Below, piece after piece: positions 59,688 through 62,981 of a stretch of DNA of 64,000 nt (position 1 is the first letter of the stretch; the number at the start of each line of letters is the position of its first letter). Source of the DNA: Candidatus Pyrohabitans jungbluthii (GTDB lineage Archaea > Hydrothermarchaeota > Hydrothermarchaeia > Hydrothermarchaeales > BMS3B); NCBI GenBank assembly GCA_002010065.2, contig MTMD02000008.1:192001-256000 (forward strand). Reading direction: 5' to 3'. The translations under genes and the position numbers were made by a program. The notes under the pieces were generated by a model that was given only the letters and a program-made list of their open reading frames with translations, had not been told where the DNA came from and did not search any database.

Positions 59688-59845
59688 TACTATTCCTCCG
59701 TTGGTATGAGGTAATATCACCTATATATAATACTTTTGGACTTTCAAAATCAAGCTCCTCTCAATTGGAAAAGTACCATGGTAAAGATTTATGCAAAGCT
59801 TGCACAAGGGAAGCTTTTTATCTCAGCCCCGCGGAAGTCTTTAAT

Positions 59846-60751
59846 GTGATAAAGGTAGTTTCTCCTGCAACGAGTGCAAATCTTGGGTCTGGCTTTGACG
59901 TCTTTGGCTTGGCGTTAAGCTCGCCTGCTGACGAGATGGGCTTCAAGGAGATTGAGGAGGGTGTGAGGATTAAAGTTAGAGGGTACCCCGTGCCAGAGAG
60001 CAGCGAGGAGAACATCGCTGGCTACGTCGCGGCGCGCGTGCTCTCAGCAAAAGGTGTGGAAGCGGGTGTGGAAATATCCATAAATAAAAAAATACGGCCA
60101 AAGAGCGGCCTAGGCTCAAGCGCAGCTTCAGCGGTTGGCGCAGCGTATGGCGTAAATGAGCTTTTTAATCTCGAGATGAGCAGGGAGGAGATTCTCCACT
60201 TCGCCCTTATGGGCGAGAAATACTTCTCAGGCGCTGAGCATGCAGACAACATCGCCGCCTGCCTGTACGGTGGCTTTACCTGCGTCAGCTACTCTCCGCT
60301 GAAAGTGCTCTCCATCACCCCGCCAGAATTTATGGAGTACGCTGTTCTCTTGCCCGAGGTTGAGGTGGAAACGCGCTCCGCAAGGGCGATGCTCCCCGAG
60401 AAAGTGCCCTTAGCTTCGCATGTGCGCAACCTGGCTAATGCTGCCTTCCTCGTAGCTGGTATGCTGCGAGGCGATGGCAATGCTATACGCACAGGGATGC
60501 GCGACGAGATTATAACGCCTCTGCGTAAAAACTACATACCTCACTTTGAGGAGCTAAGCTCAGCTGCCATTAAAGCGGGTGCCCTGGGATTTGCGATAAG
60601 TGGCTCGGGCCCAGCATGCATAGCGCTGTGCGACTCATCCAAAATAGCTGGCGAGGAGCTTGCAGGCGTGCTTAGGGAGGTTTACCAGAAGCATGGCTTA
60701 GAATGCACCACCTACGCTGGAAAGGTCGGTGTGGGATGCGGTGTAAAGTAG
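59846..60751 (+). CDS. thrB: Homoserine kinase
   Basis: PATSANLGSGFD, GLGSSAAS GHMP motif, HADN, SGSGP. Confidence 0.95.
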   Translation: MIKVVSPATSANLGSGFDVFGLALSSPADEMGFKEIEEGVRIKVRGYPVPESSEENIAGYVAARVLSAKGVEAGVEISINKKIRPKSGLGSSAASAVGAAYGVNELFNLEMSREEILHFALMGEKYFSGAEHADNIAACLYGGFTCVSYSPLKVLSITPPEFMEYAVLLPEVEVETRSARAMLPEKVPLASHVRNLANAAFLVAGMLRGDGNAIRTGMRDEIITPLRKNYIPHFEELSSAAIKAGALGFAISGSGPACIALCDSSKIAGEELAGVLREVYQKHGLECTTYAGKVGVGCGVK

Positions 60752-60785
60752 GCAGAATTGAATAATAGTTGTTTCGGGGAACGAA

Positions 60786-60803
60786 AGAAAAATTTTATAT
60801 AAT
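60786..60803 (+). promoter_or_regulatory. BRE/TATA promoter (AGAAAAATTTTATATAA) of the ncRNA candidate
   Basis: Consensus-like TTTTATATAA at 60793-60802, 21 nt before the first stem. Confidence 0.7.
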
Positions 60804-60823
60804 ATTACAATCATGCTATATAC

Positions 60824-60953
60824 TGCGGGCTTAGGGGGAGAATAACAGTATTCCCGAGCTCTAAGCCGGGAATACTGTGGCTGACGCACCTAGTGGTGCC
60901 CACTCAGCCAATCCCCGGGCCGGGTATCTTCCCGGCTCCAACCTAAGCTCGCA
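60824..60953 (+). ncRNA. Unassigned structured non-coding RNA (12-bp closing stem + three hairpins)
   Basis: GC-rich island in an AT-rich spacer; almost fully paired; own promoter and downstream T6 tract. Confidence 0.7.
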
Positions 60954-61042
60954 CCCATTCCATACTCTGATTTTTTGTGACTGATGGGGATATGATTTTT
61001 ATATCACCGCTGCTGAATTCTGCATAGGCAGGGAAAGAGGAT

Positions 61043-61468
61043 ATGGGACTCCACCTTTACGTTGCGGCGCCGCTCTTCAGCGCAGCAGAGCGGGAGTTTA
61101 ACTCGCGGCTTTGTGCTGAGCTTGAACGCCGCGGCTACAGCGTAACGCTGCCTCAGCGAGACTGCTCTGGCGACAGGGAGGAGATATTCAGGTGCTGCCT
61201 TTCAGAGATCCGCAGAGCGAGTGTTGTTATTGCTGTGCTTGAAGGCGCCGGCTGCGACGACGGCACAGCCTTTGAGGTGGGTTATGCCTTTGCGCTGGGA
61301 AAGCGCATCTTAGGTTTAAGAACGGACTTTCGCAACGTGGGCGAGTATGGGGCAAGGGTTAATTTGATGCTGGAAAAAGCGTGCGAGAAGCTTTTAGCAA
61401 GCGAAGAAGAGCTTTTCGTCGCCCTTGAACATATGGAGGGAGAGTATGGAGAAAAAGCTAAGAATTAA
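61043..61468 (+). CDS. Nucleoside 2-deoxyribosyltransferase-family protein
   Basis: YVAAPLFS.AE, LPQ, D.GTAFEVGYA, RTD, NLM. Confidence 0.9.
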   Translation: MGLHLYVAAPLFSAAEREFNSRLCAELERRGYSVTLPQRDCSGDREEIFRCCLSEIRRASVVIAVLEGAGCDDGTAFEVGYAFALGKRILGLRTDFRNVGEYGARVNLMLEKACEKLLASEEELFVALEHMEGEYGEKAKN

Positions 61469-62981
61469 AGCTCTGGACATAAAAGAGGGCAGGTATGAGA
61501 TAACCCTCAATGAGGAGGATGCCCGCGAACTCGGTTTGCACACCCGCGACAGGGTGAGGGTTTACCATAATGGCGAGTACCGCGTAGCCAGCGTTAATTT
61601 GTCCTCTCGAGCTATAGGCAAAGGTGAAGCAGGAGTTACCATCGACCTTCAGGAGGCATTTAATCTTAAGGAAGGGAACTTCATAACCGTTGTGCCCACG
61701 GCCAAGCCTAAATCCGTGGAGTTCATTCGCAAGAAGATGGATGGGCTTGTGTTAAATGAGGGCGAGATTGATGCGATTATCAAAGATGTGGTAAACCGCG
61801 ACCTGAGTGATATTGAGATTACGGCTTTTATAACTGCACTTTATATAAACGGGCTGAACATGGAGGAGGCCGCAAGCTTAAGCAAGAAAATGGCTGAGAA
61901 CGGAGAGATGCTGGAGCTAAGGCGAAGACCAGTGTTCGACAAGCACAGCATCGGGGGTGTGCCGGGCAACAAAATTACCCTGCTCATCGTGCCCATCGTC
62001 GCTGCTGCCGGGCTTGTGATACCCAAAACCTCTTCACGGGCGATTACCTCAGCTGCGGGTACAGCTGACATTATGGAAGTGCTCGCACCAGTGAGCTTTT
62101 CAGCGCGCGAAATTGAGGAGATTGTGGATAGGACCAATGGAATAATCGCATGGGGGGGCGGACTTAACCTTGCGCCGGCGGATGATATTTTTATCCAGGT
62201 GGAGTATCCCCTTGCGATAGACCCCCACTACTTAGCGCTGTGCAGCGTTATGGCTAAGAAGTATGCGGTGGGCGCTGATTTTGTGGTCATCGACATACCC
62301 ATGGGCAGCGAGGCAAAGGTTAAGACAATGGAAGAAGCGAAGCGCTTTGCAAGAGAGTTTATTGAACTGGGGGAGAAGATAGGGATAAATGTGGAGTGCG
62401 CCATAACCTACGGCGACAAGCCTATAGGTAGAGCCATAGGCCCTGCTTTAGAAGCTAGAGAAGCGCTTGCAACCCTGGAGAAGGGCGCTGGACCGAGCAG
62501 CTTTGTGGAGAAGTCTCTGGAGCTTGCGGGCATACTTCTCGAGGCAGGGGGCGTAGCGAGCAGGGGCAGAGGCAAGGAGGCGGCGAAGCAGATCCTTCGC
62601 TCAGGCAAGGCTTTAAAGAAGATGAAGGAGATAATCGCGGCCCAGGGGGGAGATGAAAAAATTAAGGCAGAGGATATCCACGTTGGCGAATACCGCGAGG
62701 TTATAACCAGCGATGGCGAGGGTTATGTAATCCACATATCCAATCGCGCTCTGGTGAGAATCGCCAGAGAGGCGGGCTCACCAAAGGATAAGGGTGCCGG
62801 GATACTTCTCCACGTGACCAAGGGTGAGAAGGTTAAGAAGGGCGACGTTCTCATGGAGATCTACGCAGATAGCGAGTACCGCTTAGAGCAGGCAGTGAAG
62901 CTGGCGAAGCAGCTCAAGCCGATAACCCTCGAGGGGATGGTTTTGGCAAGGGTGCCAGGGATTACCTACTTTGAGCACTGA
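61446..62981 (+). CDS. deoA: AMP phosphorylase (archaeal thymidine phosphorylase family)
   Basis: DKHSIGGVPGNK, KTSSRAITSAAGTAD, IGPALEA, AGSPKDKGAG. Confidence 0.93.
   Translation: MEKKLRIKALDIKEGRYEITLNEEDARELGLHTRDRVRVYHNGEYRVASVNLSSRAIGKGEAGVTIDLQEAFNLKEGNFITVVPTAKPKSVEFIRKKMDGLVLNEGEIDAIIKDVVNRDLSDIEITAFITALYINGLNMEEAASLSKKMAENGEMLELRRRPVFDKHSIGGVPGNKITLLIVPIVAAAGLVIPKTSSRAITSAAGTADIMEVLAPVSFSAREIEEIVDRTNGIIAWGGGLNLAPADDIFIQVEYPLAIDPHYLALCSVMAKKYAVGADFVVIDIPMGSEAKVKTMEEAKRFAREFIELGEKIGINVECAITYGDKPIGRAIGPALEAREALATLEKGAGPSSFVEKSLELAGILLEAGGVASRGRGKEAAKQILRSGKALKKMKEIIAAQGGDEKIKAEDIHVGEYREVITSDGEGYVIHISNRALVRIAREAGSPKDKGAGILLHVTKGEKVKKGDVLMEIYADSEYRLEQAVKLAKQLKPITLEGMVLARVPGITYFEH

Follow-up and report, generated by a model that had tools for sequence, protein, structure and literature searches.

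Several small RNAs (sRNAs) of bacteria belong to flagellar regulons. In the available parts of the respective reports, these include the sigma28-dependent UhpU, MotR, FliX and FlgO of Escherichia coli (PMC10578931) and the CJnc sRNAs that Campylobacter transcribes from flagellar-regulon promoters (PMC11187230). On the archaeal side, activator-dependent archaellum promoters have been described in which the activator site lies directly upstream of a weak A-run transcription factor B recognition element (BRE) and a TATA box, the EarA-type motifs being A(C/G)(C/G)TACA(T/C) in Thermococcales and TACATA in Methanococcus (PMC10665913); the words "sRNA" and "non-coding" do not occur in the available text of that paper. 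Here we studied a stretch of 64,000 nucleotides of the archaeon Candidatus Pyrohabitans jungbluthii (Hydrothermarchaeota; contig MTMD02000008.1, positions 192,001 to 256,000, hereafter called the window), in which a predicted small RNA gene lies between thrB and a nucleoside 2-deoxyribosyltransferase-like gene (ndt), behind a promoter with a palindromic, operator-like site.

As in the bacterial flagellar regulons, the sRNA gene described here appears to be placed under the promoter logic of the motility structural genes, which suggests RNA-level feedback or coupling. The promoter machinery is different, consisting of BRE/TATA and an upstream palindrome rather than an alternative sigma factor, and belongs to another domain of life. 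Furthermore, the bacterial examples, as far as the available sections describe them, are mostly derived from untranslated regions and dependent on Hfq, with targets that have been mapped, whereas the small RNA is predicted from genome sequence. In titles and abstracts, the literature on archaellum sRNAs offered no regulon small RNA apart from hvo_1211s of Haloferax, which is likewise an archaeal regulatory RNA tied to archaellum gene control. In the available description, hvo_1211s overlaps its target gene cirA and is thus cis-encoded, while the small RNA is intergenic and highly structured, with no overlapping gene; the two come from different phyla, and no sequence relation was detected between them. 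Orphan G+C-rich structured RNAs of hyperthermophiles are represented by the Hgc RNAs of Methanocaldococcus and Pyrococcus. Like the small RNA, these are stand-alone RNAs of about 130 nt that are richer in G+C than their genome and stably folded, with no function assigned; the small RNA differs in that it matches no Rfam family at E ≤ 10 beyond three chance-level hits and occurs in one genus only. Finally, the promoters of flaB1 and of the small RNA share the layout of the EarA promoters, as described in the available text, with a different motif (GTTTCG-N5-YGAAAR). Neither the small RNA nor this operator was found in titles and abstracts on Hydrothermarchaeota non-coding RNA or archaellum sRNAs.

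We propose, at about an even chance, that the locus is a stand-alone gene, found in one genus, for a small RNA of about 150 nt that depends on an activator and belongs to the motility and chemotaxis regulon. The RNA would be transcribed from G60825 to a T run at 60971 to 60976 and, as the palindrome pattern suggests, would owe its activation to the transcription factor that also turns on the swimming and chemotaxis genes. Folding and comparison show an invariant closing stem of 11 to 12 bp (P1) with a conserved G.U pair, a short helix P2 that carries the hairpins H1 and H2, and, beside these, the hairpin H3 and a C-rich tail that stays unpaired. Below, G000 denotes the window's own genome, G001 to G004 the other four species-level genomes of its genus (g1), and g2 and g3 the sister genera; all features lie on the plus strand unless stated otherwise.

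The promoter region contains an operator-like palindrome, GTTTCG-GGGAA-CGAAAG (60771 to 60787), whose arms TTTCG/CGAAA are kept in all five loci of the genus around a variable spacer. It is followed by an A-run BRE (AAAAA) and the TATA box TTTTATATAA (60788 to 60802), both read from the sequence and conserved in the alignment. A third element, (A/C)GCTAT(A/T)TA(C/A)T, occupies positions -12 to -1 (60813 to 60824) and is nearly invariant in the five loci; its G000 version is CGCTATATACT, reaching 60824. This block presumably corresponds to the promoter-proximal, initially melted region. The center of the TATA box lies about 27 nt upstream of G60825, and the base preceding this G is a T, giving a pyrimidine-purine start. 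A TATA-to-start distance of about 27 nt is the usual archaeal geometry, and the transcript would thus start flush with P1. The predicted primary transcript of about 150 nt (60825 to 60976), with its 5' end placed by the TATA distance and the T/G initiator and its 3' end by the T6 run at 60971 to 60976, a likely terminator, is spanned by covariance model matches in five genomes.

We then folded the stretch from 60820 to 60960 against a background of 200 dinucleotide shuffles. The plus strand reached a minimum free energy (MFE) of -81.4 kcal/mol, compared to -46.5 ± 4.1 kcal/mol for the shuffled sequences (z -8.56), and none of the 200 shuffles folded as well. The minus strand of the same stretch gave a z of -6.1. 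All five homologues folded better than their shuffles (z -4.6 to -10.5), the plus strand being the more stable one in four of them, and their G+C content was 55 to 67%, compared to 51% for the genome. P1 is formed by UGCGGGCUUAGG (60824 to 60835) and CCUAAGCUCGCA (60942 to 60953), 12 bp including one G.U pair (G60828.U60949). Inside it, P2 pairs GGGGA (60836 to 60840) with UCCCC (60912 to 60916) in both the MFE and the consensus folds, its core being GGGG at 60836 to 60839 with CCCC at 60913 to 60916. H1 (60845 to 60878) is a 14-bp hairpin with a bulged A, made of ACAGUAUUCCCG/CGGGAAUACUGU plus an inner GC/GC step and capped by the "amber-like" loop UCUAA. It is followed by H2, GGCUGA-GCACC/GGUGC-UCAGCC (60879 to 60909), and H3 (60917 to 60938), an 8-bp hairpin GGGCCGGG/CCCGGCUC that contains GCCGGG/CCCGGC; the two are found in five and four of the five sequences, respectively. 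The pyrimidine-rich 3' tail CCCAUUCCAUACUCUGA (60954 to 60970) is unpaired in all folds.

An earlier note, made from the letters of the window, had listed the BRE/TATA, the P1 pairing, the three hairpins, the T6 tract and the TATA-like element of the next gene, and all of these were found at the positions it gave. It had described the RNA as cloverleaf-like; the helices stand but the architecture does not, as P2, which the note had missed, encloses H1 and H2 and gives two nested three-way junctions instead of a four-way cloverleaf. Likewise, the BRE that it had called strong is present, but an A-run BRE preceded by an operator is the better reading of it. Its proposal of an independently promoted, structured, non-coding plus-strand RNA held up: the gene has its own BRE and TATA box, separate from a conserved ndt TATA box, occurs in all five genomes and shows pair changes on both sides of its helices. 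Its remark that no sense open reading frame (ORF) is present was borne out as well, no conserved ORF being found on either strand in the five homologues. Taken together, the sequence data support a very stably folded, non-coding, independently promoted plus-strand gene whose expression is predicted.

Covariation was measured on an alignment derived from the covariance model, with five sequences and 48 pairs, using 500 column shuffles and slid alignments as controls. Paired bases filled 93.1% of the alignment cells. Changes on both sides were found at 9 of the 48 pairs, compared to 3.5 ± 1.5 in the shuffled columns (none of the 500 shuffles reached 9) and 0 to 4 in the slid controls; the compensatory changes that the note had anticipated among homologues are thus present. 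They were unevenly spread over the molecule. The outer 10 pairs of P1, including the G.U pair, are identical in the five sequences, and no differences are listed at 60824 to 60833 or 60942 to 60953 in the contigs of four metagenome runs. The interior is about 60% identical, with insertions and deletions. In P2, one pair changed on both sides. H1, which has 14 bp in G000, is re-sequenced in G004 and replaced by a 6- to 7-bp hairpin of other sequence in G002 and G003. The second pair of H2 changed from G-C to A-U in G002, and H3, which G002 has lost, shows changes on both sides at three of its seven pairs. Additional compensatory pairs came from the metagenome contigs, namely 60849/60874 (U-A to C-G) and 60855/60868 (C-G to U-A) in H1, and 60919/60936 in H3 (G-C to A-U, in all four runs). 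The H1 loop reads CUCUAAG in G000, CUUUAAG in G001, CACAU (5 nt) in G004 and CAACCA in G002 and G003, and is hence not conserved. The 3' tail is C-rich in the five sequences with a differing sequence, and contains CCUCC, the anti-Shine-Dalgarno core, in three of them.

The palindrome is present at the RNA promoter in all five genomes, 6 nt from the TATA box, which is the same spacing as in flaB1. In G004, thrB lies on a different contig from the RNA, while the palindrome, the promoter, the RNA, ndt and deoA remain together; since the upstream neighbour changed and the palindrome stayed with the RNA, we assign the palindrome to the RNA gene and not to thrB. The 17-mer GTTTCG-N5-YGAAAR was found 8, 6, 8, 7 and 6 times per genome (35 in the five), compared to 2, 1, 0, 1 and 0 times (4) for the reversed control, and its core TTTCG-N5-YGAAA at 17 distinct places in G000. 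All 32 distinct sites are followed by an A-rich stretch and then, 5 to 8 nt downstream, by a TATA-like box (called by a strict pattern at 15 sites and by eye at the other 17). The sets of sites are orthologous across the five genomes.

Apart from the RNA, the sites of G000 precede three archaellin genes with a CheC-like fusion; a KaiC-type (ArlH-like) ATPase with a divergent CheB-CheR pair; a CheY-like receiver with a PAS histidine kinase; a Zn-ribbon protein with a MEDS-PadR regulator; two ORFs with no assigned function inside the archaellum cluster; a HAMP/dCache/PAS sensor (the sixth site); and an ATP-binding cassette (ABC) transporter with a periplasmic binding protein. Five of these seven sites fall within about 19 kb. 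The archaellum and chemotaxis cluster of G000 (contig C8, 362682 to 381790) contains the three archaellins, a CheC-V4R-TrmB fusion, the KaiC-type ATPase, CheB, CheR, the CheY-like receiver, PAS kinases and MEDS-PadR. In five of its promoters, GTTTCG-N5-YGAAAR stands immediately before the A-run BRE and the TATA box. Because the palindrome is common to the RNA and to the archaellin and chemotaxis promoters, the RNA would share their transcription factor, and we regard GTTTCG-N5-YGAAAR as a candidate genus-specific motility operator. MEDS-PadR was considered as the genus-specific factor and set aside in that role, as it has orthologues across the order; it remains one of several candidate binders, others from the cluster being the CheC-V4R-TrmB fusion and a 176-aa wHTH protein. 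The two ORFs of the archaellum cluster, of 198 aa (L079:18576-19172, minus strand) and 114 aa (L079:19171-19515, plus strand), share an operator-bearing divergent promoter and matched nothing in Pfam or NCBIfam. Throughout the genus, the sequence that immediately follows the minus-strand promoter is conserved.

At flaB, the sister genera g2 and g3 carry another palindrome, TTACCTACATAA...TGTAGGTA, which contains ACCTACAT and fits the EarA-type motif (L088-L092). With no mismatch allowed, this motif occurs once per genome, at flaB, in four of five genomes of g2 and g3. A search for RNA genes behind this palindrome in g2 and g3 thus came back to flaB only, the matches with one mismatch being no commoner than in the reversed control. 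Genus g1 and the genera g2 and g3 thus seem to use different archaellum promoter sites, and the operator set and the predicted RNA are both specific to genus g1 in the genomes compared.

Homologues of the RNA were found by BLAST and covariance models in all five genomes of the one Hydrothermarchaeota genus. The copies of G001 and G004 are 87% and 80% identical to that of G000, and those of G003 and G002 were first recognised solely through the P1 strands. In its own genome the RNA is single copy, BLAST returning one full copy. A first covariance model (R1, three sequences) gave no match in 30 genomes of the order outside the genus. A second one (R2, five sequences) gave no convincing match in the other 33 genomes of the phylum and none in 146 further genomes (among 151 archaeal relatives). 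The weak R2 matches in G017, G002 (contig C83), G022 and G008 were discarded, as their cmsearch alignments showed no matching helices; that in G017 additionally has no promoter and overlaps the end of an ORF. An exact-pattern scan of a large genome collection with both P1 strands returned the same four archaeal metagenome-assembled genomes and four bacterial records. The latter gave no covariance model match and were rejected, being within the approximately 30 chance matches that we estimate for 20 fixed bases. In metagenome contigs, the same pattern gave four records, two of them real, with scores equal or close to those of the G004 and G002 copies. The pattern scans of large collections thus yielded no new sequence type, and contigs of four metagenome runs at the locus added three further strain variants. 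In the sister genera, the orthologous spacers (before ndt in g3, behind thrB in both g2 and g3) contain other genes or an intron-bearing tRNA and no such RNA, and g3 has an ndt without RNA or operator. In these genomes, the RNA family is restricted to one genus of deep-sea Hydrothermarchaeota.

Two further observations concern the spacer behind thrB. In G006, a genome of g3 (L074), an intron-containing tRNA gene follows thrB at the place taken by the small RNA in g1. In one hydrothermal-vent metagenome (run X5), the 3' end of a related thrB shows 7 differences over 52 nt; behind it, past window position 60751, come first GTTTCGGGAAACGAAT and then unrelated sequence. This variant may come from a relative that has the palindrome but a different or missing RNA promoter.

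The note had placed the RNA in no recognisable class, and the searches against known families agree with it: Rfam and ARAGORN gave no tRNA and no family at the locus. Run without introns, ARAGORN found only a tRNA-Pro and a tRNA-Leu in the window, none at 60824 to 60953, and run with introns on the whole genome it made no call at the locus. The latter run gave 51 tRNA calls, a few of them doubtful, which together serve all 20 amino acids; a tRNA-Trp with an intron and three CAU tRNAs are among them. At the gathering score, Rfam recovered only the two true tRNAs of the window, and at E ≤ 10 the 361 bases from 60700 to 61060 returned only chance-level matches, to mir-1278 (E 0.97), snoU36a (E 7.1) and DLEU1 (E 8). 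RNase P RNA, 5S rRNA and signal recognition particle (SRP) RNA are all present elsewhere in G000, so the small RNA replaces none of them. Box C/D and H/ACA guides were rejected, as the RNA contains no C box and none of its hairpins has a large internal loop. A riboswitch or cis leader was dismissed on the lack of an Rfam match and on the conserved TATA box of the downstream gene. A Y RNA of a Ro ribonucleoprotein was rejected because the 99.95% complete G000 gave no match to TROVE (PF05731), while control genomes were detected; similarly, a retron or other reverse transcriptase-associated RNA was rejected because PF00078 was not found in G000. An RNA derived from a miniature inverted-repeat transposable element (MITE) or an insertion sequence was excluded by its single copy and its neighbours thrB, ndt and deoA. 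With its own promoter and a likely terminator, no ORF and a conserved structure, the small RNA has the features of a stand-alone, trans-encoded archaeal sRNA, the transcript being predicted.

Several points weigh against our proposal of a regulon small RNA. The expression of the RNA and both transcript ends are deduced from sequence. The operator is a sequence pattern whose factor is hypothetical, one site precedes an ABC transporter, so that "motility regulon" may be too narrow, and the RNA's own site ends in G (CGAAAG), most others ending in A. The covariation test is weak, with five related genomes, a few strain variants and an alignment fitted to the structure model; additionally, H1 is partly unpaired in G001, and the constraint is hence not on every helix. 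As for the mode of action, a tentative suggestion is that the RNA acts in trans on mRNAs through its single-stranded pyrimidine-rich tail, while the stable body would protect it at high temperature or dock a protein. Such pairing would resemble that of the bacterial flagellar-regulon sRNAs, and the CCUCC of three tails would suit it. The same weighing applies here: the tail is the least conserved part of the molecule, whereas the double-stranded P1 is the most conserved one, and a target scan of G000 for the tail (7-nt seeds, then duplex energies) revealed no outstanding site, the best non-self one (-28.7 kcal/mol) not being located at a gene start. By eye, the tail matched the ndt and flaB1 start regions of the five genomes over 4 to 6 bp with no consistent co-variation.

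As a by-catch, the target scan brought up a repeat, TGGGGT(A/G)ATAGGGGCGGGTGCGGCGCCCCTAT, that spans about 32 nt, includes a palindrome and has at least four copies in G000 (including C1:53853, C2:125847, C14:189030 and C7:50588), three of which precede GTG-started ORFs.

As a rival, we consider a protein-binding RNA, either a ribonucleoprotein scaffold, as the earlier note had also suggested, or a decoy. A protein would read P1 and its G.U pair, and the hairpins would serve as interchangeable stabilisers; membership in the regulon would still hold. This possibility, to which we assign roughly a one-in-four standing, draws on the distribution of conservation. P1 is the only part that never varies, its outer pairs being invariant in the genus and in the four metagenome runs, while the interior diverges, H3 can be lost and neither the loops nor the tail are conserved. 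Proteins commonly contact a G.U pair that is conserved within a helix of otherwise Watson-Crick pairs. The P1-binding protein is itself hypothetical, though, and inspection of the RNA by eye revealed neither a K-turn nor an Sm-like or any other known protein-binding motif. Moreover, the 5' strand of P1 comprises the first 12 transcribed bases after the conserved -12 to -1 block, and part of its invariance could stem from the promoter, in which case pairing would carry the 3' strand along.

A more elaborate version of protein docking, which we hold to be doubtful, makes the RNA a dedicated component of the archaellum and chemotaxis circuit that arose together with the lineage-specific operator. 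P1 with its G.U pair would dock a protein of the regulon, for example a regulator or a factor of the CheC/CheY type, and the RNA would titrate or scaffold it without pairing to mRNA. The sister genera have an EarA-type flaB site and neither the operator set nor the RNA. If true, this would introduce a protein-sequestering small RNA into archaeal motility control.

Slightly less probable still is a cis element of ndt-deoA, in which the regulated RNA promoter reads into the next promoter and either occlusion or a structured leader couples AMP salvage to the regulon. Its attraction lies in the position of the RNA, which is found 70 to 90 nt upstream of ndt on the same strand in the five genomes and which stayed with ndt-deoA when thrB moved in G004. 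A T run directly after the RNA is present only in G000 (T6) and G001 (T4), and in G002 to G004 the first T5 is that of the ndt TATA box itself. On the other hand, a conserved TATA box and a short leader belong to ndt itself, G000 does carry T6 directly after the RNA, and genus g3 has ndt with neither RNA nor operator. With 12 bp and a high G+C content, P1 is more stable than a ligand-switched aptamer would allow, and none of the riboswitch families matched. The link to nucleotide salvage drawn in the earlier note survives as a position beside ndt-deoA, and is positional only.

It is improbable that the locus is no functional RNA at all, that is, a palindromic DNA remnant with MITE-like inverted repeats or an incidental intergenic structure. 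The 12-bp terminal inverted repeats do flank about 105 bp, and expression is a prediction; the element is nevertheless single copy at a fixed position in five genomes, and in all of them the one position at which the repeats differ remains a G.U pair on the plus strand, where the other strand would have C.A. The compensatory changes in H1 to H3 and the dedicated promoter with the regulon operator speak against a remnant as well.

We also regard as improbable, marginally more so, that the RNA derives from the Alu domain of SRP RNA by duplication and truncation of 7S RNA. The G000 SRP RNA starts with CUGCGGGCUAGG and the small RNA with (CU)GCGGGCUUAGG, and the nesting [P1[P2(H1)(H2)](H3)] equals the SRP nesting [H1[H2(H3)(H4)](H5)], few topologies being possible with five helices. 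Yet no SRP family matched at E ≤ 10, there is no UGUNR turn between H1 and H2, and the local alignment to the organism's own SRP RNA scored 18, compared to 17.7 ± 2.5 for shuffled sequences (225 of 500 shuffles reached 18). The tRNA-Leu of the window also starts with UGCGGGGG, so that a G-rich start is no peculiarity of these two RNAs. The SRP RNA (G000 C2:240017-240335) and the small RNA (window 60823 to 60835) both start with CUGCGGGCU(U)AGG; G000 may favour a particular initiator or 5' end for its stable RNAs.

The tRNA mimic or suppressor-like tRNA relative suggested in the earlier note can practically be dismissed: it has four helices around a core and a G000 loop, CUCUAAG, readable as U33 plus a CUA anticodon, to its credit, but P1 has 12 bp compared to 7 bp in an acceptor stem, there is no T-loop, the junctions are nested and three-way, the amber-anticodon-like loop is not kept in the genus, neither ARAGORN nor Rfam calls a tRNA, and tRNAs for all 20 amino acids are encoded elsewhere.

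The surroundings of the gene are as follows. Upstream lies thrB, encoding homoserine kinase (59765 to 60751; NCBIfam NF002288, 330 bits with a cut-off of 194). Downstream, the TATA-like box TTTTTATAT of the next gene (60996 to 61004) is kept in the five loci about 40 nt upstream of the ATG. It is followed by ndt (61043 to 61468, 141 aa; Pfam PF05014, E 1.5e-22), which comes after the RNA in all five genomes, and by a deoA-type AMP phosphorylase gene (61425 to 62981; NCBIfam TIGR03327, 726 bits with a cut-off of 535). A weak C/D-box-like match, to snoU36a (13.9 bits, E 7.1), covers the ndt promoter and leader at 60987 to 61053 and was read as chance. Elsewhere in G000, the ARAGORN run with introns called a tRNA-Arg(CCG) with a 148-nt intron (C2:215068-215305) and a tRNA-Lys(CUU) with a 132-nt intron (C6:2902-3123), both of which may be real, and a tRNA-Ile(GAU) with a 2452-nt "intron" (C14:22737-25279), which is probably an artefact.

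Archaeal motility control is known through a few transcription factors, and RNA players are just emerging. The Hydrothermarchaeota are uncultured, with genome sequence as the only handle, and the locus offers a new structured RNA family with clear boundaries. The candidate operator would define a small conserved regulon that comprises the archaellins, the ArlH-like ATPase, CheB/CheR, the CheY-kinase pair, MEDS-PadR and the RNA, and the sister genera, with an EarA-type site and without the RNA, provide a natural contrast. The RNA family, the operator and the genus contrast are all testable without culturing the organism. Even if the RNA should prove to be merely another lineage-specific small RNA, the operator and its regulon would still aid annotation.

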